In this document: positions 5,972-40,883 of the stretch, in pieces
How positions within the stretch are numbered: position 1 is the first letter of the stretch
Layout: each line of letters starts with the position of its first letter
Sequence record: ON568341.1
Strand: one strand, 5' to 3'
Origin: Escherichia phage UE-S1
DNA length: 64,000 bases
The notes under the pieces: generated by a model
Database searches by the model: none
What the model saw: the letters and a program-made list of their open reading frames with translations, nothing else
What the model was told of the DNA's origin: nothing
Program-made: the position numbers and the translations under genes

Positions 5972-6093
5972 CAAGTACTACTTTGATCGAATAGAGTTAG
6001 TACTGAGTGCTGTTGATGAAAAGACCAGCGACCGTTGCATATGACTGCGATAGAGAGAAACCGAGCAACCCGCTTTCGCTCTCTAATTTTTGG

Positions 6094-6123
6094 TACAAGA
6101 AAGATCCGTCCAAAATTTGAGAA
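6094..6123 (+). repeat. 30-nt direct repeat, copy 2 (tacaagaaagATCcgtccaaaatttgagaa)
   Basis: 27 of 30 identical to the copy at 5942..5971. Confidence 0.6.
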
Positions 6124-6160
6124 ATTCGCAATTCGATAATATCCGATGCCATCATCGTCA

Positions 6161-6188
6161 AGAGAGACTTAATTGTCTCTTTTTTATT
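6161..6188 (+). terminator. intrinsic terminator-like hairpin plus T-run inside the ORF-free region
   Basis: AGAGAGAC ttaatt GTCTCT followed by TTTTT; could mark the 3' end of a small RNA. Confidence 0.45.
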
Positions 6189-6325
6189 ACCTTCATTCCC
6201 CTGCGGGGGGATGTAATAGTCCTCAACAAATCCCGTCAAGTTTTTAAAGTACATTATCATTTTTAGAAGGAACTAGTTTACGAAGTAAACGCAGTGACTT
6301 CTTGAGTTACGAGAGAACGAAGTGA

Positions 6326-6754
6326 ATGAGTAACACAACGAAAATATCCGATAAATCTGAATTAACACAAATGTTATTCAAAGAATATTTTGAGTTTCAG
6401 ATAAAAGACGAACATCAATTACCACAGCAATATTTGAAAAGAATTAAAGATCCGTCAATAATTACTAAAGAAACAAATTTTTATAATAGTATTTTTGATT
6501 TCGTTAAATCAGTTCATACAACAAGACCTATTGTAGTTTTGTTTTTTGATAAATCTATTCCTTTAGTAGTTCCTGAAAATGTATTTTTTATTTCAGAAAC
6601 TGATTTAAATAACCAAAGTACTGTAAGTAGATTAAGAAATTGCTTACTTGTAGTATGTGATTCTTCATTATATAATAACAGAATACTATGGGATAGAAGT
6701 AAACGCAATGCAATTGCAGAAATGAATCCTGAAGTTACATTTATTATTAACTAA
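6326..6754 (+). CDS. hypothetical protein
   Basis: ORF track; RBS-like GAGAGAACGAAG upstream. Confidence 0.5.
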   Translation: MSNTTKISDKSELTQMLFKEYFEFQIKDEHQLPQQYLKRIKDPSIITKETNFYNSIFDFVKSVHTTRPIVVLFFDKSIPLVVPENVFFISETDLNNQSTVSRLRNCLLVVCDSSLYNNRILWDRSKRNAIAEMNPEVTFIIN

Positions 6755-18003: not shown

Positions 18004-18480
18004 ATGATACATGAGCACCGAGGTAATCTGTTTGAATTGTTCAGTACTGTAACCGATGATGAAACTGCATTGCATATTATTGCACATGGTTGCAACGCCC
18101 AAGGTAAAATGGGTTCTGGTTTTGCAAAAGAACTAAGAAATCGTTACCCAATGGCATATGATGATTATAAAGCATATGAAAAGGAAATGGGATTTCTAAG
18201 AACTGGAAAAATTGCATATTCTTCGGTAAGTGATGATTTACTTATTGCAAACTGTATTACCCAACAATTCTACGGGAATGATGGTAAAAAATATGTAAGT
18301 TATGATGCAATTGATGATATTTTCAAAGAGATAAATTACTTATGTAATATTGAACGTAGTGTTTATGTACACTTTCCGAAAATTGGAGCCGATTTGGGTG
18401 GTGGTAACTGGAACGTTATCAAAGAAATTATTGATCACAGACTGGTCAATGCAGAAAAACACTTATATATTCTAAAATAA
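18004..18480 (+). CDS. macro domain-like (ADP-ribose binding/processing) protein
   Basis: LHIIAHGCNAQGKMGSGFAKELRNRYP matches the macro-domain spacing h-VNAAN-x-G-x-G-GV-x-A-x-x-x-x-W/YP; 158 aa. Confidence 0.5.
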   Translation: MIHEHRGNLFELFSTVTDDETALHIIAHGCNAQGKMGSGFAKELRNRYPMAYDDYKAYEKEMGFLRTGKIAYSSVSDDLLIANCITQQFYGNDGKKYVSYDAIDDIFKEINYLCNIERSVYVHFPKIGADLGGGNWNVIKEIIDHRLVNAEKHLYILK

Positions 18481-18823: not shown

Positions 18824-19201
18824 ATGGCTGTTAATGACGTTAAAGTAAAAACTATTCAAGCTATCGTAGTACTGAAAGATTCAACTCCATCTCCAAAAGA
18901 ATTGGTAATGGCTGGGATGACAATGCTTCATCAATACAATCCTGAATCACCAAATTATGTTCAAGAATACGAAGCAAAGCAGTTTAAAGAACATTGGCAG
19001 TCATGGATTAAAGATAATGAAATGGAGCAAGTTGTTTATGCTGCTGATGACATTTTCGAATTAGAACAAATTGAATATCTAGCAGGTCAACAATCTGTGC
19101 CGTTGAGTATCTTCGGTAATGGTGAAGAAGTCTTAGTTCTAGGACCATTCACTGCCGATGTAATTACACACTTACTAAGTAATTGTGAAAAAATTGGCTA
19201 A
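18824..19201 (+). CDS. hypothetical protein (weak, unverified resemblance to PTH2-type peptidyl-tRNA hydrolase C-terminus)
   Basis: ORF track; C-terminal VLVLGPFTADVITHLL vaguely resembles the PTH2 TVLGIGP..VTGHLKL region. Confidence 0.4.
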   Translation: MAVNDVKVKTIQAIVVLKDSTPSPKELVMAGMTMLHQYNPESPNYVQEYEAKQFKEHWQSWIKDNEMEQVVYAADDIFELEQIEYLAGQQSVPLSIFGNGEEVLVLGPFTADVITHLLSNCEKIG

Positions 19202-19412
19202 ATGCTTAAAATTATCAGGATACCGAAACAATACATTGATGTTAAATAATATAAAGTATTGGGTTGATCCATACTTTAATAATTCATTGTTAATGTACAG
19301 AGATAAAAGTCGAGATTTATACGGAATATATGTTACACAGTTAATATATGCTATAGATTCAGAACATTTTACTCCGTTGGTATACCTGTACTGTTTGTAT
19401 AATTCAGAATAA
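19185..19412 (+). CDS. hypothetical small protein (GTG start, weak)
   Basis: ORF track only; no clear RBS. Confidence 0.25.
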   Translation: MKKLAKCLKLSGYRNNTLMLNNIKYWVDPYFNNSLLMYRDKSRDLYGIYVTQLIYAIDSEHFTPLVYLYCLYNSE

Positions 19413-19464
19413 GTATTAGCACCTCTAAATAATGTATATATAAACATTAATGAGGTGCTTTTTT

Positions 19465-20256
19465 ATGTCTTACAATTATATGGGTGGAAATCCAGATGCT
19501 CCTAACTTTGATCATCGTGAAAAACTGAAAGATGTTATCACTCAAATGTTGGGAGCAGGTGCAGTTGAGGTAGAAATTACTGATGGTCAATTAGAAATTG
19601 CAATTGATAATGCTGTATCAAATTACAGAGCGTGGAGTTCTGCTTCTAAAGAAGAAGCTTTTTTAAATATGAAATTTTATGATTCACAATCTGTATATAT
19701 GCTCCCAACTGAAGTTGAAATAGTTAAAAAGATTTACCGCTATGGTAATGGTTATTTAAGTTCTGGGTCAGGTAACAGCGTAGACCCATTCTCATTGGCA
19801 TTCACGAATACATATCTATTGACGTCGGCTAGGAATGCAGGTGGATATGATCTAACAACTTATGATTTCAGCTTTCAATTTCAAGAATTGGTTGGTCGTA
19901 TGTTTGGACGTGAAATTATATTCCAATTTAACCCAATGACTAAGAAACTTATTATTGATCGTGATATTCGCGGTACAGAAGAAGTATTACTACATGTGTA
20001 TCATAATATTCCAGAACCATTATTGTTCCAACGTCAGCAAAGCTACCCGTGGCTTCGTGATTGGGCATTGTCTGAAGCAATGATTATGCTTGGTCGTAAC
20101 CGTGCTAAGTTTGCTAGTTTGCCTGGACCACAAGGGACATTTTCAATGGATGGTGATACATTAAGAAATGAAGGTATCCAATTACAAGAACAACTAAAAG
20201 AACAGTTGAAGCGATATAAAGATGGTGGAGAACCACTTGGAATGATTATCGGGTAA
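19465..20256 (+). CDS. hypothetical protein, possibly virion-associated
   Basis: ATG at 19465 after GAGGTG; sits just upstream of the structural block; no diagnostic motif. Confidence 0.45.
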   Translation: MSYNYMGGNPDAPNFDHREKLKDVITQMLGAGAVEVEITDGQLEIAIDNAVSNYRAWSSASKEEAFLNMKFYDSQSVYMLPTEVEIVKKIYRYGNGYLSSGSGNSVDPFSLAFTNTYLLTSARNAGGYDLTTYDFSFQFQELVGRMFGREIIFQFNPMTKKLIIDRDIRGTEEVLLHVYHNIPEPLLFQRQQSYPWLRDWALSEAMIMLGRNRAKFASLPGPQGTFSMDGDTLRNEGIQLQEQLKEQLKRYKDGGEPLGMIIG

Positions 20257-20284
20257 ATTTTAAACATTAAAAAAAGAGTACTAT

Positions 20285-22279
20285 ATGAATAATGAAGAAT
20301 TGAAAAAACTTTTGTTGTCAAAACATATTAATTCATGGGTACATTTATACAAAGGGGACTCTCATGTGAGAGATCTCCTTTCTGTTTTTGGAATAGAACC
20401 AAAAACTGATTTCGAAATATATAAAATTCTATATATGTTCATGAATGATATAACAACAGTTCCAACTGCATATTGTGGAAAAAAAGCAAGATACAAAAAT
20501 TTTCAAAAAGGATTTTATAAATTTTGTGATGATTATGTAATTAATAAGAAAAATACGTGTAATGTATGCCATGAGATGTATTATAAAAATCGAACTAATA
20601 AAACAAAATCAACATTAATGAATATGTATGGTGTATCTAATGTATCCCAGATCCAAGAAGTAAAACAAAAGAAAGAAAAAACTAACATTGAACGTTATGG
20701 TGTCTCTACTAATTTACAGACAACAGAATCTAAAGAGAAAATCAAACAAACTAATATAGAGCGATATGGATGTGAATATCCAAATCAAAACCCTGAAATA
20801 TTCAATAAAGTAAAAGAAACAAATTTAAAAAAGTATGGTGTTGAATTCCAAAGTAAAAGAAATGAAGTAAAAGAGAAAGCCAAAAATACAAATATATTAA
20901 GATACGGAACTGAGTATTCTTTATCATCACCGACTATTCGCGAAAAAATCAATAAAACAAATCTTGAACGATATGGTGGAAACCCACTATCAAATAAAAT
21001 TATCCAAGATAAAATAAAAAACACCAACACATTGAAGTATAATTCATTTTATCCAATGAGCAATATGAGTATTCAGGAAAAAGTTCATAATACCAATGTG
21101 GAACGATATGGTGTAAAATACCCAGCCCAAAATAATTCTATCATTGAAAAAATGAAAGAAACCACAAAAAATAGATATGGTTCAGAACACTACTCACAAA
21201 CAGATGAGTATAAAGATAAAATATCACTTGCCCGTCTAGACGAAAGATATAATATAATTGTTGCAAATATTGATAAAAACTATATTCCATTATTTGAAAA
21301 TACCGATCTGATTATGAAAGTTAATACAGACGAATACCCATTTTGGTGTGAGTATTGTGATGATTTGTTTTATAGTAAGTATAAAAATCATAAAGTGAAA
21401 TGTAAGTGTCAGAAAAATAATGGTCATTCCTTGAAAGAGAAAGATTTAGTTGATTATATAAAATCATTAATACCAAATACCGAAATCATAGAAAATGACC
21501 GTTCAGTACTGAAACCTAAAGAGTTGGATGTGTATATCCCTGACCGAAATCTAGCTATTGAATTTAATGGTGTGTATTGGCATAATGATGAAAATGTCAA
21601 TTCTACTAAACACCAAGATAAGGTATTGGATTGTTTAAAACATGGGGTGAATCTTATTCACATTTATGAAGATGAATGGGATAACCCATTAACAAATAAA
21701 ATAATCAAGGAACGTTTAAAGAATAAACTTCTAGTGTCAAATAGAATTTATGCTAGAAAATGTACTGTTAGAAATATAGACAAACAAGTAAGTAATATGT
21801 TTACTAAATCACACCATATTCAAGGTGTTGCACAAGCAAGTATTCACATTGGACTTTACTATGGAAGTGAGTTGGTTGCAGTTATGACCTTTGGTAAATC
21901 AAGGTTTGATAAAAACTATGAATATGAATTAATCAGATACTGTTCATCCGGTACAGTTGTTGGTGGTGCATCAAAATTACTAAAATATTTTGAAACAGTA
22001 TATAATCCACAATCATTATTGACATATGCGGATATGGATTGGAGTAGTGGTGATCTTTATACAGTTCTAGGCTTTGAGTTTGATAGTTATACAGAACCAG
22101 GATATTTTTATTATGACCCACAAACACATGAGAGGATTTCACGTCAGAAATGTCAAAAACATAAATTGGTCAAGAAAGGTTATGATATTAACTTAACCGA
22201 GAGACAAATTTGCTGTGATGTGTTGGGATATTATAAGATTTACAACTCTGGTAATATAAAATACACAAAAAAATATTAA
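20285..22279 (+). CDS. multidomain homing-endonuclease-like protein (tandem ~30 aa repeats, PD-(D/E)xK-like nuclease motif, C-terminal domain)
   Basis: About nine repeats of K-x-K-x-TN-x-ERYG; central LDVYIPDRNLAIEFNGVYWH resembles restriction-endonuclease-fold (DUF559/Vsr-like) motifs. Confidence 0.5.
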   Translation: MNNEELKKLLLSKHINSWVHLYKGDSHVRDLLSVFGIEPKTDFEIYKILYMFMNDITTVPTAYCGKKARYKNFQKGFYKFCDDYVINKKNTCNVCHEMYYKNRTNKTKSTLMNMYGVSNVSQIQEVKQKKEKTNIERYGVSTNLQTTESKEKIKQTNIERYGCEYPNQNPEIFNKVKETNLKKYGVEFQSKRNEVKEKAKNTNILRYGTEYSLSSPTIREKINKTNLERYGGNPLSNKIIQDKIKNTNTLKYNSFYPMSNMSIQEKVHNTNVERYGVKYPAQNNSIIEKMKETTKNRYGSEHYSQTDEYKDKISLARLDERYNIIVANIDKNYIPLFENTDLIMKVNTDEYPFWCEYCDDLFYSKYKNHKVKCKCQKNNGHSLKEKDLVDYIKSLIPNTEIIENDRSVLKPKELDVYIPDRNLAIEFNGVYWHNDENVNSTKHQDKVLDCLKHGVNLIHIYEDEWDNPLTNKIIKERLKNKLLVSNRIYARKCTVRNIDKQVSNMFTKSHHIQGVAQASIHIGLYYGSELVAVMTFGKSRFDKNYEYELIRYCSSGTVVGGASKLLKYFETVYNPQSLLTYADMDWSSGDLYTVLGFEFDSYTEPGYFYYDPQTHERISRQKCQKHKLVKKGYDINLTERQICCDVLGYYKIYNSGNIKYTKKY

Positions 22280-22285
22280 TAAAAA

Positions 22286-22309
22286 AGACTCCTATGTGGG
22301 GTCTTTTTT
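22286..22309 (+). terminator. intrinsic terminator
   Basis: AGACTCC tatg TGGGGTCT followed by TTTTTT. Confidence 0.6.
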
Positions 22310-22354
22310 CTTTATCTGTGATATAATGATAATATTAATAGAAGAGAATATAAC

Positions 22355-22624
22355 ATGAATGATAATATAAATGTAATGTATAACAGATATCGTTGCGGGA
22401 AACCAACGCTTGATTATGAATCTACGGAAAAGTATTGGAAATTTATAAAAGATTCAATTGTTGATGTATTCGGTCGAGATCGTATAAATGCGTGGGCCAG
22501 TATATATCGTGATGAGCATGGAGAAACATTTTTCATTACTTATGTTTCTGTTTATAATAGTAACGAATCAATAGTTAAATTGCTTCAATGTTTGGTGGGG
22601 AAGGATTTTGTTGTATTGGAATAA
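22355..22624 (+). CDS. hypothetical protein
   Basis: ORF track. Confidence 0.4.
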   Translation: MNDNINVMYNRYRCGKPTLDYESTEKYWKFIKDSIVDVFGRDRINAWASIYRDEHGETFFITYVSVYNSNESIVKLLQCLVGKDFVVLE

Positions 22625-22641
22625 TTTCATGGAGAAATATT

Positions 22642-23268
22642 ATGGAAAGACAAATAATCGCAATTAATGGAACAATAGGAAGTGGAAAAGATACTTTTGC
22701 AAAAACATTTATTGAAAATGGATATACAAAAATGTCATTTGCTACCAATTTAAAAGACTCAGTATCTTCTATTTTTGGGTGGGATCGTGAAATGCTTGAA
22801 GGAACGACTAAGGAAAGCCGCATGATTCGTGAAAAACCGGATAAGTACTGGTGTGAAAAATTGGGGCGTGATGATGTATCCCCTCGATGGGTATTACAAA
22901 ATTATGGTACTAATATACTACGTAAGTATTTTCATAATGATATTTGGGTATTCAGTTTAGAAAAATCTATGCAAGAAGTAAATGGAAATATCATCATCAC
23001 TGATTGTCGTTTTCCTAATGAATTAAAAATGATTAGATCTCAACATGGTACGATTATTGAAGTGCAACGTGTACTTCCACATTGGTATGGATTGGCTGCA
23101 TCTTATAATAAAGGAAATATTAAAATTAAACCAGTAGAACTTGAATCAGTACATGAATCAGAGTGGGCTTGGATTGGAATAAACAAACCTGATATAATTA
23201 TTCATAATAGCAGCACATTAGATGACTTACATCAAAAAGCAATGGCGATTATTTATTCTAATATGTAA
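22642..23268 (+). CDS. deoxynucleoside monophosphate kinase (T4 gene 1-like)
   Basis: ATG 22642 after GGAGAAA; P-loop GTIGSGKDT, NLKDSV, RWVLQNYGTNILR, TDCRFPNEL and IIHNSSTLDDL parallel T4 gp1 (SGKDT, IKDAL, RRLMQALGT, DTRQDHE, ITNDGSLEEL). Confidence 0.7.
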   Translation: MERQIIAINGTIGSGKDTFAKTFIENGYTKMSFATNLKDSVSSIFGWDREMLEGTTKESRMIREKPDKYWCEKLGRDDVSPRWVLQNYGTNILRKYFHNDIWVFSLEKSMQEVNGNIIITDCRFPNELKMIRSQHGTIIEVQRVLPHWYGLAASYNKGNIKIKPVELESVHESEWAWIGINKPDIIIHNSSTLDDLHQKAMAIIYSNM

Positions 23269-34892: not shown

Positions 34893-36218
34893 ATGACTAC
34901 TCAAAACGATATCCTGAATGTTAAACTGACTCCAAAGAAAGCTAAAGAAGCAATGGCACTAGCTGACATGATTCAAGATAGCCTGATGATTTGGGGTAGC
35001 CCAGGTATCGGTAAGTCTGCAATTGCTCGTCAATACGCTGATGAAAATTACCCTCTGCGTAAAGATAACGAAGCTAAAATCGAGTTCATGAAACAACAAA
35101 TTGAAGCTGACCCTGAAAATGCTGATCAGCTACGCCGTGAACTGGCTGCATTTGAAGCTAAACTAATCGACCAAGATACTAACTTCATCGATTTCCGTTT
35201 GTCTCAAATTGAACCAAGTGACCTCCGTGGTATCCCTGTACCAGAGAAGCTTTTCCGTAAAACTGACGGTTCTCTTCTCAAAGAATCTGAGCTTGCTGAA
35301 GCAAAAGATTATGTTGCTGAAACTGCTGTAGTTTGGGCTGCACCTAAAGTGCTGAAATTGCCAGAAGATTGGAAAGGGGTTATTCTGTTTGACGAAATTA
35401 ACTCTGCAATGCCAATTGTTCAGGCAGCGTCTTATCAGCTAATCCTCGACCGTTGTGTTGGTGAGATGAAGCTACCTAAAACTGCACTGATTCTTGCAGC
35501 AGGTAACCGTGAAACTGATGGCGGTGTAACGTTCTCACTGGCTACACCACTACGTGACCGTATGACACACATTGAGATGATTCCTTATCATCAAGATTGG
35601 ATTAACGATTATGCAATTGGTAAACGTTTGAACCCAGCAACTGTTGCGTTCATCAACAACACAGGTTCTAAGTACTTTAACACTCTTAGCCCACAAGATC
35701 CTTCTCACAGTGGTGGTACTTCTCCACGTTCATGGGAAGCTGTAGCACGCTACGAAGATCTCAAGAAAACTAAGACAATTGATAAAGAAGTGTTCCGTGC
35801 AATGATTGCTGGGCGTGTAGGTGAAGGTGTAGCAACTGAATACATTGAGTACGTTGATAACGTTGCTAAACTACCAGATACTATGTCTATTCTGTCTGGT
35901 GAAATCAAAGATATCGATGCAACTCTTGATATTTCTGCGAATTATTTTATTACTTTGAACTTGGTTTATAAAATTATCGACCTGTTCAATGAGAAGCAAG
36001 AACAACGTCTACCAGTGGAAGAATGGGGTAAACTGTGCAACAACTTCATTACCTTCCTTGACCATAACTTCTCTGCAACTCAAGCAGAACTGGCAGTTCT
36101 GGCAATTCGCACCATTACGCTTCATAAGGTTGCGATTTCCATTAAAGATGTACCAGCGTTTAAAGATTTTATCGCTAAGTACTCTGAACTAGTTCGTAAA
36201 GCACGCTCTCTTGGGTAA
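34893..36218 (+). CDS. MoxR-like AAA+ ATPase (AAA_5/CbbQ/CobS-like)
   Basis: Walker A WGSPGIGKSAIARQYA, Walker B VILFDEINSA, downstream AAGNRE; 441 aa single-AAA architecture. Confidence 0.7.
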   Translation: MTTQNDILNVKLTPKKAKEAMALADMIQDSLMIWGSPGIGKSAIARQYADENYPLRKDNEAKIEFMKQQIEADPENADQLRRELAAFEAKLIDQDTNFIDFRLSQIEPSDLRGIPVPEKLFRKTDGSLLKESELAEAKDYVAETAVVWAAPKVLKLPEDWKGVILFDEINSAMPIVQAASYQLILDRCVGEMKLPKTALILAAGNRETDGGVTFSLATPLRDRMTHIEMIPYHQDWINDYAIGKRLNPATVAFINNTGSKYFNTLSPQDPSHSGGTSPRSWEAVARYEDLKKTKTIDKEVFRAMIAGRVGEGVATEYIEYVDNVAKLPDTMSILSGEIKDIDATLDISANYFITLNLVYKIIDLFNEKQEQRLPVEEWGKLCNNFITFLDHNFSATQAELAVLAIRTITLHKVAISIKDVPAFKDFIAKYSELVRKARSLG

Positions 36219-36239
36219 TTAACAAAGAGTGGTTGACAA

Positions 36240-36268
36240 GAAGGATACGATATAGTATCCTTCTTTTA
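36240..36268 (+). terminator. hairpin plus T-run (weak terminator or attenuator between the two module genes)
   Basis: GAAGGATAC gatata GTATCCTTC followed by TTTTATC. Confidence 0.45.
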
Positions 36269-36292
36269 TCTTAACTAAACGAGGAAATATAC

Positions 36293-37717
36293 ATGTCGGA
36301 TAACAAATCTTCATCTAAGTTTAATGAAGTATCACCAGAACTCCAAAAGGAATGTCAAGATCGATTGGTTCTGGCTCGTACATCTTTGATGTTAACTGCT
36401 CCGTTCTTTGGTGTTTTGGCTTCGCGTTTACGTCCTGTTCCTAATAATACATGGTGTCGTACACTAGCAGTTGATGGGAAACATTTATTCTACAATGTAG
36501 AATTTGTTATGGGCATCCAAGATCAATCTAAAAAGAAAGAGTACGAAGATGCTATTCGTGAAAAACACCCAGAGGTTACTGATGAACAATTAAAAGAAAT
36601 GACAGAAGGTCTGACAGATGAAAACCTCATTGCAGTGATTTGTCATGAAATTTTGCATTGTGCTTACGACCACTTCCTTCGTCGTGGAATGCGTGATCCA
36701 CAACGATACAATCGTGCAGCAGATTATGCAATTAACCAAATTATTGTCCGTGAGAAAATTGGAAAAATCCAAAGCTCATGGTTATATGATAAAAAATATG
36801 AAGGAATGACCGCTGAAGAGATTTATATTCTTCTGGAAGATGAAGAACAAAAAGAAGAAGGTGAAGGGAACGGTCAACCACAAAGCGGTGGTGGTGAAGG
36901 TGAAGGTAAAAATCGCGGAACTTTTGGTGATATCAAAGATGGTAAGGGTAAACCAAAAGGTACAACAATTGACCAACATGACGTTCCACAAGAAGGCCAA
37001 GACGGTGGTTCAAGTGAACAGCAAAAACGCGATTATATGGATGATTTCAAAACAGCAATGATGAATGCTGCACGTGCTGGTGGCACACCAGCAGAAATCG
37101 CTCGTATGATTAATAACTTCAAAGAACCAAAGATTGATTGGCGTTCTAAACTTCAACGCACTCTTCGTAGCTGGTTGAAGTCTGATGCAACTTATCAAAA
37201 TCCAGCACGTCGTTCATGGGGTGCAGGTTTTGGTTCTAATGGTTCATTTTATGGTAATCCAATTTATCCAGGGATGAAACCAGATGATGATATTGATATT
37301 GCAATTGCACTCGATGCTTCTGGTTCTATTTCCGAAGACATGCTTCGTGATTTTATTAGTGAAGTTCTTGGTATCACTAAACAATTTAAACAGTTTAAAA
37401 TTCGTATCATGACATTTGATACTGAAGTTTATACTGTAAAAGATTACAAAACTGGTGAAGAACGTAAGATTCTGGAATATCCAGTAAAAGGTGGTGGTGG
37501 TACTGACTTTGAAGCAGTATGGGTTCATATGAAGAATGACAACTATAAGCCTAAACAGCTTGTAATGTTTACTGATGGTGAACCGTGGCAGTCATGGGGT
37601 GATCCTAACTACTGTAAAACACTGTTTGTGATTCACAGTAACCCAAATAAAGTTGCACCATTTGGTGAAACAGTACACTACGAGTATGAAGCAGACAAAA
37701 AACGTCAACGTAGTTAA
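36293..37717 (+). CDS. VWA-domain protein with N-terminal HExxH metallopeptidase-like motif (DUF2201-like partner of MoxR ATPases)
   Basis: HEILHCAYDH zinc-binding-like motif; Gly-rich acidic linker; C-terminal MIDAS-like DASGS followed by FTDGEPW. Confidence 0.65.
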   Translation: MSDNKSSSKFNEVSPELQKECQDRLVLARTSLMLTAPFFGVLASRLRPVPNNTWCRTLAVDGKHLFYNVEFVMGIQDQSKKKEYEDAIREKHPEVTDEQLKEMTEGLTDENLIAVICHEILHCAYDHFLRRGMRDPQRYNRAADYAINQIIVREKIGKIQSSWLYDKKYEGMTAEEIYILLEDEEQKEEGEGNGQPQSGGGEGEGKNRGTFGDIKDGKGKPKGTTIDQHDVPQEGQDGGSSEQQKRDYMDDFKTAMMNAARAGGTPAEIARMINNFKEPKIDWRSKLQRTLRSWLKSDATYQNPARRSWGAGFGSNGSFYGNPIYPGMKPDDDIDIAIALDASGSISEDMLRDFISEVLGITKQFKQFKIRIMTFDTEVYTVKDYKTGEERKILEYPVKGGGGTDFEAVWVHMKNDNYKPKQLVMFTDGEPWQSWGDPNYCKTLFVIHSNPNKVAPFGETVHYEYEADKKRQRS

Positions 37718-38736: not shown

Positions 38737-39330
38737 ATGAAAAAGAATGAATTAGATGAAGCAATTAAAGGTTTATCTAATGTATGTTTTAGTGGCGGGG
38801 CAGCAGGTGCTGACCGCCTTTTTTCAATCTATGCAAAAAATAATGGATTTGAAGTTATTAATTTTTCATTCAAAGGTCATGTGCATAGTGTAGATGAAAG
38901 CACCATATTAGAAATACCATCCAATATTTTATCTGATATTTCTATATTAAATCAACTAAACATTGCATGTTATTCGTTGCAGCGAAAAGTACCAAAGCCT
39001 GGTTCATATGTTTACAACTTACTTGCAAGGAATAGTTATCAGATACTTAATACAGAAAGAATATATTGTATTGCAAATATTACATCGCCAACTAAGGTAA
39101 GTGGTGGTACTGCATGGGCAGTACAGATGTACATTGATTCAGTTGAAAATCCAGAAATTTATTGTTATGATATGAATTCACGTTCTGTGTTTTACTTCGA
39201 TACAGAACTGAAAGAGTTCAAACAATCATTCGTGGTTCCACCACCACATGGTAACTGGACTGGTATTGGTTCACGCAATGCAACAGAAAAACATATGGAA
39301 CATTTTATTACATTTTTCAAGGAAGAATAA
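38737..39330 (+). CDS. hypothetical protein with Rossmann-like GGAAGAD motif (possible SLOG/DprA-like fold)
   Basis: VCFSGGAAGADRLFSIYA near the N-terminus; assignment is tentative. Confidence 0.4.
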   Translation: MKKNELDEAIKGLSNVCFSGGAAGADRLFSIYAKNNGFEVINFSFKGHVHSVDESTILEIPSNILSDISILNQLNIACYSLQRKVPKPGSYVYNLLARNSYQILNTERIYCIANITSPTKVSGGTAWAVQMYIDSVENPEIYCYDMNSRSVFYFDTELKEFKQSFVVPPPHGNWTGIGSRNATEKHMEHFITFFKEE

Positions 39331-40883
39331 TGAAGCAACTACAAGAACTATATCAAAAAATTCTAGATGAAGGCGTAGAAAGCGTTGACCGTACTGGCGT
39401 TGGCACAATCAAACTTATCGGTCAACAAATGCGTTTCGACCTTAAAGATGGTTTCCCAGCAGTGACGACAAAACGTCTAGCTTGGAAATCAATGACTTCA
39501 GAATTACTATGGTTTATTGAAGGCTCCCATGATGAACGTCGCCTTTGTGAAATTTTACATGGAACTCGTGATACAGAAAAGAAAACTATTTGGACAGATA
39601 ATTGTTTAGATCGTGCAAAAAACGATCCCAATCGATTTAATGGGGAAACGGTCGGTAATATGTATGGCATGAATTGGCGTTATCAACCATCTGAACCACA
39701 TAGCTATCAATATATTGAGAGGAAAACATATATTGATGATTATGTTGAAAATCATATTTGTCCAGAAATTACTGATACATTTAATGGAGTTAAAATTCAC
39801 AAATCTGCCAAATGTGGGGATTATGAAGTTATTGGTAAACATCATAATAATATAGTAATTCGTTTCATTAACACCGGTTCATATAAAATTGTACCAAGAA
39901 CTGCGAAAAATATTAAAGATTTTTTCCAACCATCAATTGAAGGGATTGGATATTTGGGTGGTGTAATTCCTGATACATTAACTGCAAAAAAATTATATCA
40001 AATTTGGAAAGATATGATTATTAGAGTGTATAACCCTAGAAAAAATCATTTATCATATGAAAATATAACTGTATGCAAACGTTGGCATAATTTTATGAAT
40101 TTTTACAATGATGCTTTTTCATTATGGGGATTTCAAGAATTTGTTGACAGTGGGTATTCTCATCAACTTGATAAAGATTATTACGGTTCAAACATTTATT
40201 CACCTGATACTTGTATTTTTATATCAGCATCATTAAATAAAACATTAAATGGTGGTGGACATGGGTTTAAAATTTATCTTTATAAAGGTAATGTATTTTA
40301 TTCTAGAACCGATTTACAAGAATCACGTGGTTTAACAAGAAAGGCCAATTTACCAGATGATGTAACAATATTAGAAGATAATGAAACACACGTAGTAAGA
40401 CCAAAAATATACATTGATCAACTACAGCGTTGTATTGATTTAATAAAGAACGATCCAGATTCAAGACGAATTGTTATTACATCATGGAATTCTAGAGATA
40501 TTGAAAATGCAGCATTAGGTATGTGTCACCCATTAGTACAATGGTTTGTTATTAATGGTAAGTTGTCATGTTCATTTTATATGCGTAGTTCTGATAGCTT
40601 CTTAGGCTTACCATTCAACATAGCATCATATGCACTACTTACCCACATGATAGCACAAATATGTTCTCTAGAGGTTGGAGAATTGATTTATACAGGTGGT
40701 GATTGTCACATTTATAAAAACCACGTTGAACAAGTAAAAGAACAACTACAGCGAAAACCACGTGAATTACCTGAATTGTGGCTTGATCCTACCATTACTA
40801 ATATTGAAGATTTCACAATGGATTCTTTCAAATTAGTAAATTACAACCCAATGCCAACAATTAAAGCACCGATGGCTGTATAA
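39330..40883 (+). CDS. td: thymidylate synthase (ThyA type) with ~240 aa in-frame insertion
   Basis: N-terminal 118 aa and C-terminal 156 aa align along bacterial ThyA (DRTGVGT, ELLWF, DPDSRRI, GLPFNIASYALL, active-site CHP region); the insert sits at the variable loop after the W-R motif. Confidence 0.85.
   Translation: MKQLQELYQKILDEGVESVDRTGVGTIKLIGQQMRFDLKDGFPAVTTKRLAWKSMTSELLWFIEGSHDERRLCEILHGTRDTEKKTIWTDNCLDRAKNDPNRFNGETVGNMYGMNWRYQPSEPHSYQYIERKTYIDDYVENHICPEITDTFNGVKIHKSAKCGDYEVIGKHHNNIVIRFINTGSYKIVPRTAKNIKDFFQPSIEGIGYLGGVIPDTLTAKKLYQIWKDMIIRVYNPRKNHLSYENITVCKRWHNFMNFYNDAFSLWGFQEFVDSGYSHQLDKDYYGSNIYSPDTCIFISASLNKTLNGGGHGFKIYLYKGNVFYSRTDLQESRGLTRKANLPDDVTILEDNETHVVRPKIYIDQLQRCIDLIKNDPDSRRIVITSWNSRDIENAALGMCHPLVQWFVINGKLSCSFYMRSSDSFLGLPFNIASYALLTHMIAQICSLEVGELIYTGGDCHIYKNHVEQVKEQLQRKPRELPELWLDPTITNIEDFTMDSFKLVNYNPMPTIKAPMAV

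Follow-up and report, generated by a model that had tools for sequence, protein, structure and literature searches.

A probable Hef-like homing endonuclease gene with a DUF7487 repeat array and a Mom-like domain behind the neck gene of a jumbo coliphage

What is the function of a 664-codon gene that stands directly behind the neck protein gene of a jumbo coliphage and is missing in most of its close relatives, and is this gene kept for the benefit of the phage or for its own spread? The question is raised by Escherichia phage UE-S1, of which we analyzed a stretch of 64,000 nucleotides (nt) from sequence record ON568341.1 (hereafter, the window). An open reading frame (ORF) of 664 amino acids (aa), with an ATG start and a stop codon, occupies positions 20285..22279 of the plus strand, exactly as claimed in an earlier note on this sequence; its leader, the neck gene on its left, the terminator, and the -10-like element described below are on the same strand. 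The window represents an Asteriusvirus-type jumbo coliphage of the 121Q/PBECO4/G17 group (121Q/RaK2-type), and the records closest to it are those of phages TH47 (95.7% identity) and ph0011 (91.6%). Comparison of sequences and predicted structures indicates that the gene is probably a functional, free-standing homing endonuclease gene, a long form that falls in the Hef-like branch within the EDxHD (Vsr-like) family.

Family membership and the nuclease domain

The protein matches PHROG 3339 ('homing endonuclease') with E=5.7e-166, and no NCBIfam family matches it. In a tblastn search, relatives were detected in 434 phage records, many of them annotated as Hef-like or F-LimIII, which bears out the homing endonuclease identity that had been proposed from the sequence alone. 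Many of these matches cover only aa ~377-662, that is, a short form of the protein. Genomes of Campylobacter phages encode up to 10-12 copies of the family, and more than 3,300 metagenomic proteins match the UE-S1 protein at E<=1e-5. Near-identical genes have already been deposited with endonuclease annotations, and the gene is ordinary in kind.

Edgell et al. 2010 (PMC2988022) describe Hef of phage U5 as an endonuclease with nrdB as its target; Taylor et al. 2011 (PMC3239194) assigned Hef-type enzymes to the same Vsr-like EDxHD family as I-Bth0305I, and four Hef-like free-standing genes are present in LIMEstone1 (PMC3296691). The link between the UE-S1 protein and U5 Hef rests on database annotations together with Taylor et al. 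2011. Hef and the Hef-like enzymes of T4-like, ViI-like and Campylobacter phages (F-LimIII, Acj9, CPX) share with the UE-S1 protein a common core, a Vsr-like nuclease followed by a Mom-like domain, over which the relatives align with aa ~377-662 at 30-44% identity (tblastn, E down to 4e-57). Like the UE-S1 gene, the genes encoding these enzymes are free-standing, intergenic, variably present, and located beside conserved structural or replication genes. In the classical short forms, the N-terminal half is missing, and many of the matches begin at aa ~360-410, whereas the UE-S1 protein additionally contains a helical domain, a zinc ribbon, and an array of nine to ten DUF7487 units.

The nuclease is predicted to occupy aa 381-483 (21425..21733) and to be a Vsr-like domain of the EDxHD type of PD-(D/E)xK enzymes, as judged from profile comparison, Foldseek matches and residue conservation. 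The central PD-(D/E)xK-like motif noticed earlier, LDVYIPDRNLAIEFNGVYWH, is located within this domain, at aa 414-433. The family profile of the domain matches I-Bth0305I (PDB 3r3p) with E=4e-7, compared to E=0.018 for the single sequence, and Vsr (PDB 1cw0) is among the Foldseek matches. All the catalytic positions are intact: S382, E385, E413, D415, E426, N428, H433, H443, K446, and E462 agree with family-conserved positions, K446 being invariant. I-Bth0305I, the EDxHD prototype, contains a homologous catalytic domain, in which E170, D196, N208, and H213 correspond to E385, D415, N428, and H433 of the E...D...(N/H)...H...(D) signature in the UE-S1 protein; the last position of the signature, the acidic D222 of I-Bth0305I, aligns with H443. 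Unlike the UE-S1 protein, I-Bth0305I is intron-encoded, carries two NUMOD-like/helix-turn-helix (HTH) binding motifs and lacks a GNAT domain (PMC3239194).

No HNH, GIY-YIG, or LAGLIDADG motifs or profiles were detected in the UE-S1 protein with Pfam and NCBIfam. The NUMOD domains for which the earlier note had suggested a search did not appear either, with no match to the NUMOD1/3/4 profiles at E<=1 in Pfam scans of the protein; the repeat array belongs to DUF7487 instead. For the label 'HNH endonuclease' carried by phrog_559, no supporting HNH motif is present in the protein. The three Asteriusvirus copies of the gene (window, TH47 and ph0011) are free of frameshifts and stop codons, and the ratio of nonsynonymous to synonymous substitution rates (dN/dS) among them is ~0.10 overall, 0.02-0.15 in every domain, and ~0.1 in the nuclease domain.

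Insertion site, transfer and residence

Among 30 related E. coli Asteriusvirus records, only those of TH47 and ph0011 contain the gene; in the remaining 28, both flanks match and ~2 kb are missing. The empty sites are clean: in JNE01, the sequence 'TAA TAAAAAAGACTCC' is identical to the right junction of the window. Thus, the gene is far from universal at this locus and retains its catalytic residues, in agreement with the earlier proposal of a free-standing mobile gene.

In the window, TH47, and ph0011, the cassette, which consists of a leader, the ORF and its stop codon, is placed exactly between the stop codon of the neck gene (19465..20256, encoding a T4 gp13-like head-tail adaptor, PF26809) and the terminator of the neck gene. 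The 28-nt leader (20257..20284), in which a Shine-Dalgarno-like AAGAG can be read at 20274-20278, 6 nt 5' of the ATG, is missing at the empty sites of 121Q, G17, Ecwhy_1, and JNE01. The intrinsic terminator (22281..22309) had been attributed to the endonuclease gene itself, an assignment that does not hold: in the same four gene-less phages, the hairpin, AAAAGACTCC...GGGGTCTTTTTT, follows the neck stop codon at a distance of 0-10 nt and is itself followed by an extended -10-like sequence, TGTGATATAAT. Hence, this is the pre-existing terminator of the neck gene, now located downstream of the insert. The extended -10-like element of the window, TGATATAAT (22319..22327), recognized by consensus resemblance only, lies 5' of an 89-aa ORF and the deoxynucleoside monophosphate (dNMP) kinase gene; it is kept in gene-carrying and gene-less phages alike and is undisturbed by the insertion. 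A scan for sigma-70-type promoters yielded no more than chance (27 found versus 27.8 expected). Because the 28-nt leader offers no space for a promoter, the gene is presumably transcribed by read-through from the late neck transcript, on which its expression would then depend.

Phage TH47 and the gene-less phage Ecwhy_1 are 97-100% identical over ~30 kb, but within 19138..23151, sliding-window comparison shows that TH47 is 94-98% identical to the window and only 80-87% to Ecwhy_1. The informative sites switch between 19132 and 19138 on one side, and between 23151 and 23160 on the other, delimiting a ~4.0 kb tract of the window type in an Ecwhy_1-type backbone. This tract includes the gene along with 1.15 kb of the left flank and 0.87 kb of the right flank, and thus is roughly symmetrical. 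From the distribution of these sites, we read it as a natural co-conversion tract, the footprint expected of double-strand-break repair. The neck allele is 95-98% identical among the three gene-carrying phages, compared to 86-87% identity to the gene-less phages; the 3' end of the neck gene is conserved and might contain the target. In ph0011, there is a breakpoint right at the 3' end of the endonuclease gene: the neck gene is 98% identical to that of the window, and the first 350 nt downstream of the endonuclease gene are 77% identical.

Orthologs at the same locus are present in three other lineages, namely, Alcyoneusvirus, where the gene was found in 10 of the 10 records (55% identity), and two metagenomic RaK2-like lineages (52% and 44% identity). 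The RaK2-like Klebsiella phages RaK2, K64-1, Muenster, and phiKp_21 encode orthologs annotated as 'homing endonuclease' or 'endonuclease domain-containing protein' that show 55% identity, share the architecture and nearly the length (667 aa) of the UE-S1 protein, and likewise occupy the neck/dNMP-kinase locus; in these phages, the gene follows the neck terminator, the 89-aa ORF is absent, and the gene is not polymorphic, being present in all 10 records. The exact position of the gene varies: it precedes the terminator in the window, follows it in phiKp_21, and abuts the neck stop codon in sequences L011 and L013. The same-locus orthologs, with a divergence congruent to that of their flanks, the intact copies, the low dN/dS, and the TH47 tract together suggest that the element has long been resident at this locus and that it still moves between closely related phages.

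Along the window, the neck protein gene is followed by the endonuclease gene, the terminator, the 89-aa ORF, and the genes for dNMP kinase and the tail sheath, in this order. The position given in the earlier note is therefore correct on the left, behind a structural gene, but not on the right, where the 89-aa ORF (22355-22624) separates the terminator from the dNMP kinase gene. This small ORF has no Pfam match and is found in the 121Q-type phages and in L013 but not in the Klebsiella phages or L011; its version in ph0011 is much more divergent, falling in the stretch of 77% identity mentioned above. The dNMP kinase ORF as called mechanically (226 aa, 22588-23268) overlaps the 89-aa ORF, and its homologs suggest a start near 22642. 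No second copy of the endonuclease gene was found within the window. The syntenic region of 121Q contains two genes annotated as 'HNH endonuclease' (6020-6631 and 35728-37152 in the 121Q sequence), which are other candidate mobile nuclease genes. The thymidylate synthase ORF of the window (39330-40883) encodes 517 aa, compared to 309 aa in 121Q. The ThyA domain is interrupted by an in-frame insert of ~230 aa (about aa 125-360, no Pfam match), and ~1 kb of the ORF (39603-40633) has no counterpart in 121Q; this may represent an intein-like element or a mobile in-frame insertion of another kind.

Repeat array, zinc ribbons and the Mom-like domain

The structure of the protein was modeled with AlphaFold2 in two halves, both with high confidence (predicted local distance difference test, pLDDT, of 93.1 and 94.3; 94 for the N-terminal half). 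The N-terminal domain (aa 1-60, 20285..20464) consists of four helices (aa 3-12, 15-24, 26-35, and 42-53). This segment of the UE-S1 protein has no Pfam match and is possibly HTH-like, given that an HTH is seen at this place in some homologs, including P0013, which is matched by HTH_50 of Pfam. It is followed by a zinc-ribbon-like beta-hairpin module (aa 61-102, 20465..20590) with C64, C81, C92, and C95, strands at aa 67-72 and 76-81, and the family consensus CxxCG..F..G..CSxKC. A second zinc ribbon, along with a linker (aa 333-380, 21281..21424; C355, C358, C373, and C375; strands at aa 351-354 and 361-364), separates the repeat array from the nuclease.

The array spans aa 103-332 (20591..21280) and is the only part of the protein with a Pfam match, to DUF7487 (132.2 bits, E=3.4e-38; gathering cutoff 27 bits). 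The nine tandem repeats described earlier are clearly recognizable by their core, K-x-K-x-T-N-x-[EK]-[RK]-Y-G, and a degenerate tenth can be added, but the period is 23 aa, with one unit of 22, rather than the ~30 aa that had been estimated. The RYG anchors are located at aa 114, 137, 160, 183, 206, 229, 251, 274, and 297, and that of the degenerate unit is at 321. In the AlphaFold2 model, each unit forms one helix of ~15 residues and a loop, and the array is basic (isoelectric point 9.6). All 71 members of the aligned homolog set match DUF7487; in 120 homologs, the 23-aa spacing was observed 584 times, with the number of repeats per homolog ranging from 2 to 16. The mean pairwise identity of the nine units is 35%, compared to 7.6 +/- 0.9% (maximum 11%) in 2000 shuffles, so that chance cannot account for the repeats. 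The identity of the units in nucleotide sequence, however, is only 49%, and no repeat was reported by Tandem Repeats Finder; therefore, the array is old, and a recent DNA-level duplication is ruled out.

We found no structural analog of the array in PDB and no literature on DUF7487. Searched alone, the array matches 16,050 cluster representatives out of 1.84 billion at E<=1e-3, 8,307 at E<=1e-10, and 860 at E<=1e-30. All the architectures that we examined combine the array with a nuclease, and because three different nuclease types are involved, the array is presumably a DNA-targeting, DNA-binding module. Apart from the combination found in UE-S1, the array is fused to small classical PD..E-x-K nucleases and, in Lactococcus phage LW81, to a Vsr-like nuclease in a protein that lacks a Mom domain. 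The LW81 protein, a homing endonuclease of 313 aa (1737-2678 in the LW81 sequence), comprises a zinc ribbon, about four DUF7487 repeats, and a short Vsr-like nuclease; its gene lies between two ORFs, each with a tape measure protein annotation, and appears to split the tape-measure gene.

Between orthologs that have diverged by ~50%, repeat i is more similar to repeat i (0.47-0.48) than to the other repeats (0.33-0.37; permutation p<=2e-4). The unit-specific information resides at repeat positions 1, 2, 5, 17-19, and 21, whereas positions 4, 8, 13, and 14 do not vary among the units. The retention of unit-specific residues would fit contacts with a conserved target, although shared ancestry could produce the same pattern, so that this is a lead and not a proof. 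The 34-aa repeats of transcription activator-like effectors (TALEs) and the 23-aa STPR of FMBP-1 (PDB 5d23) are likewise short, helical, basic tandem repeats that vary in number and are attached to an effector, but the resemblance is only an analogy, and the 23-aa period of STPR just happens to coincide with that of DUF7487.

The C-terminal domain (aa 484-664, 21734..22276), the type of which had appeared unclear, contains the previously noticed motif GLYYGSELVAVMTFGKSRF...VVGGASKLL at aa 523-566. The suggestion that it might be a GNAT proved apt: Foldseek and profile comparison point to a GNAT domain of the Mom type, into which a basic helical segment (R620, K625, H626) is inserted. The top Foldseek match is Mom of phage Mu (PDB 8bv8, E=4.4e-7), followed by ordinary acetyltransferases, and profile-profile comparison with the Mom family alignment using hhalign yields a probability of 93.4% and E=2.6e-7. 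With the Pfam Mom profile (PF25680), the UE-S1 protein scores 18.2 bits (E=0.0021), below the gathering cutoff of 27.1 bits; some homologs, such as P0018 (32.4 bits) and P0046 (30.6 bits), pass the cutoff, and 17 of 70 homologs are matched at E<=0.01. Mu Mom is a Gly-tRNA-dependent DNA adenine aminoacyltransferase of the GNAT superfamily. Both proteins contain a basic helical insertion at the same place in the fold, but the UE-S1 protein has a G-G-[A]-S loop where Mu Mom has N-S-E-S, and its Mom-like domain is fused to a nuclease.

Most of the catalytic residues of Mom are kept in the UE-S1 protein, namely, H58 (H511), E108 (E548), R111 (R551), S124 (S563), D149 (D583), and Y159 (Y592). Other residues are lost, including Y59 (replaced by I512), N110 (I550), the dimerization residue W48 (Q501), and R151 (M584/D585), and N121 likewise is not conserved. 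Family-wide, H511, R551, and Y592 of the Mom-like pocket are invariant, and S563 is found in 84 of 96 proteins; the dN/dS of the domain is 0.07-0.08. In Mom, R111, S124, D149, and R151 are essential catalytic residues (PMC13219725). Equivalents of the first three are present, but that of R151 is absent in the clade of the UE-S1 protein, which has ADMD or ADMN at this position, compared to R or K in 69 of 96 relatives. Because this clade lacks the equivalent of an essential residue, its Mom-like domain most likely serves target recognition rather than DNA modification, possibly through base flipping.

Proposed mode of action and competing explanations

These features can be combined into a homing cycle of five steps, of which the first and the last rest on sequence evidence, whereas we infer the three in between. 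The promoterless gene, located between the stop codon and the terminator of the neck gene, would be transcribed late, together with the neck gene. The N-terminal helical domain, the two zinc ribbons, the basic solenoid of nine to ten DUF7487 repeats and the Mom-like domain with its basic insertion would find the target. The Vsr-like domain, with E385, D415, E426, N428, H433, H443, and K446, would then cut the gene-less allele of a co-infecting relative, probably no farther than about 1 kb from the site between the neck and dNMP kinase genes, and repair of the break from a gene-carrying genome would copy the cassette together with flanking DNA. TH47, with its ~4 kb patch of the window type on an Ecwhy_1-type genome, would be the outcome of such a transfer.

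The observations that weigh against a homing endonuclease are considered here along with the explanations that compete with it. Iyer et al. (2021, PMC7824862) interpreted Mom domains of jumbo phages fused to restriction endonuclease (REase)-fold nucleases as momylation/restriction modules. Applied to UE-S1, a single polypeptide would act as a modification-restriction module, in which the GNAT domain 'momylates' adenines in the phage's own DNA and the fused nuclease attacks unmodified DNA of the host or of competitor phages, such that the gene is kept because it benefits the phage and not through homing. This explanation, which we consider unlikely, is favored by the true relationship of the C-terminal domain with Mom, by the six retained residues, the majority of which hardly vary across the family, and by the low dN/dS of the domain; the strong conservation of the pocket hints at a function beyond passive DNA binding. 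The fixation of the gene in Alcyoneusvirus, where it co-diverges with its flanks, would fit as well. It is at odds, however, with the absence of the R151 equivalent in the UE-S1 clade, the loss of Y59, N110, N121, and W48, the score below the Pfam Mom cutoff, and the use of the same array without a Mom domain by related nucleases. A protective modification also is hard to reconcile with the absence of the gene from 28 of the 30 close relatives that infect E. coli and with the 5-12 paralogs at different loci in some genomes, which would be needless for genome-wide modification, and in the literature, Hef is an nrdB-cleaving endonuclease in a homing context (PMC2988022). Homing and modification-restriction are not mutually exclusive.

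A different challenge concerns mobility. The gene could be a long-resident, vertically inherited one that was deleted in most Asteriusvirus lineages and no longer moves, with the TH47 patch resulting from ordinary homologous recombination. Same-locus orthologs in four divergent RaK2-like lineages are compatible with this explanation, and the divergence of the endonuclease (55/52/44% identity) follows that of the flanks (neck, 80/73/57%; sheath, 68/70/66%); such long residence and fixation, as deduced from these comparisons, are unlike what a purely selfish cycle of invasion and decay predicts. The window is 84-92% identical to 121Q throughout, with no specially divergent flanks. TH47 departs from the Ecwhy_1-like backbone in two further patches unrelated to the gene, at ~13,850-15,580 and 18,018-18,363 (one of the two falls in a macro-domain gene), so that ordinary recombination could be the origin of the patch around the gene, too. 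Moreover, a comparison of phages with and without the gene for fixed differences around the junction did not locate a cleavage or immunity site; over the final 36 nt of the neck gene, only 2 nt distinguish TH47 from gene-less Ecwhy_1. Nevertheless, we regard a purely resident gene as quite improbable. The three separately diverged gene-less groups (121Q, Ecwhy_1, and JNE01) would each require a precise deletion that restored the stop codon and the terminator, the placement of the gene relative to the terminator and the 89-aa ORF varies by lineage, the TH47 tract is centered on the gene, and purifying selection acts on a nuclease that is still intact. As homing endonuclease genes, once fixed, often decay, a domesticated or decaying element, that is, a DNA-binding protein with a dead nuclease, can be envisaged as well. 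Nothing specific speaks in favor of such an element, and the full set of conserved catalytic residues, the three uninterrupted copies, and the dN/dS of the nuclease make it very improbable.

A homing endonuclease thus remains the preferred explanation, and several of its features have a bearing beyond this locus. The pair of TH47 and Ecwhy_1 is an unusually clean natural record of a gene that moved with ~1 kb of each flank between jumbo phages. The literature contains two unreconciled readings of the same architecture, a Hef-like homing endonuclease and a Mom-REase module for momylation and restriction, and the analysis of the Mom residues makes this conflict testable by mutation. The DUF7487 array is widespread and without structural precedent, and would be a new targeting scaffold if it indeed reads DNA in a modular manner. 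More speculatively, and we entertain this with considerable doubt, DUF7487 could be a new class of modular DNA-recognition repeats, in which each 23-aa unit may read successive parts of the target via positions 1, 2, 5, 17-19, and 21, combined with a Mom-like domain that is catalytic or base-flipping on a target adenine. Were this the case, the array would represent a naturally occurring scaffold coupled to a nuclease, similar in principle to TALE or PUF arrays, and through activity of the Mom-like domain on the target adenine, homing and DNA modification would be linked, either for self-immunity or for discrimination of targets.

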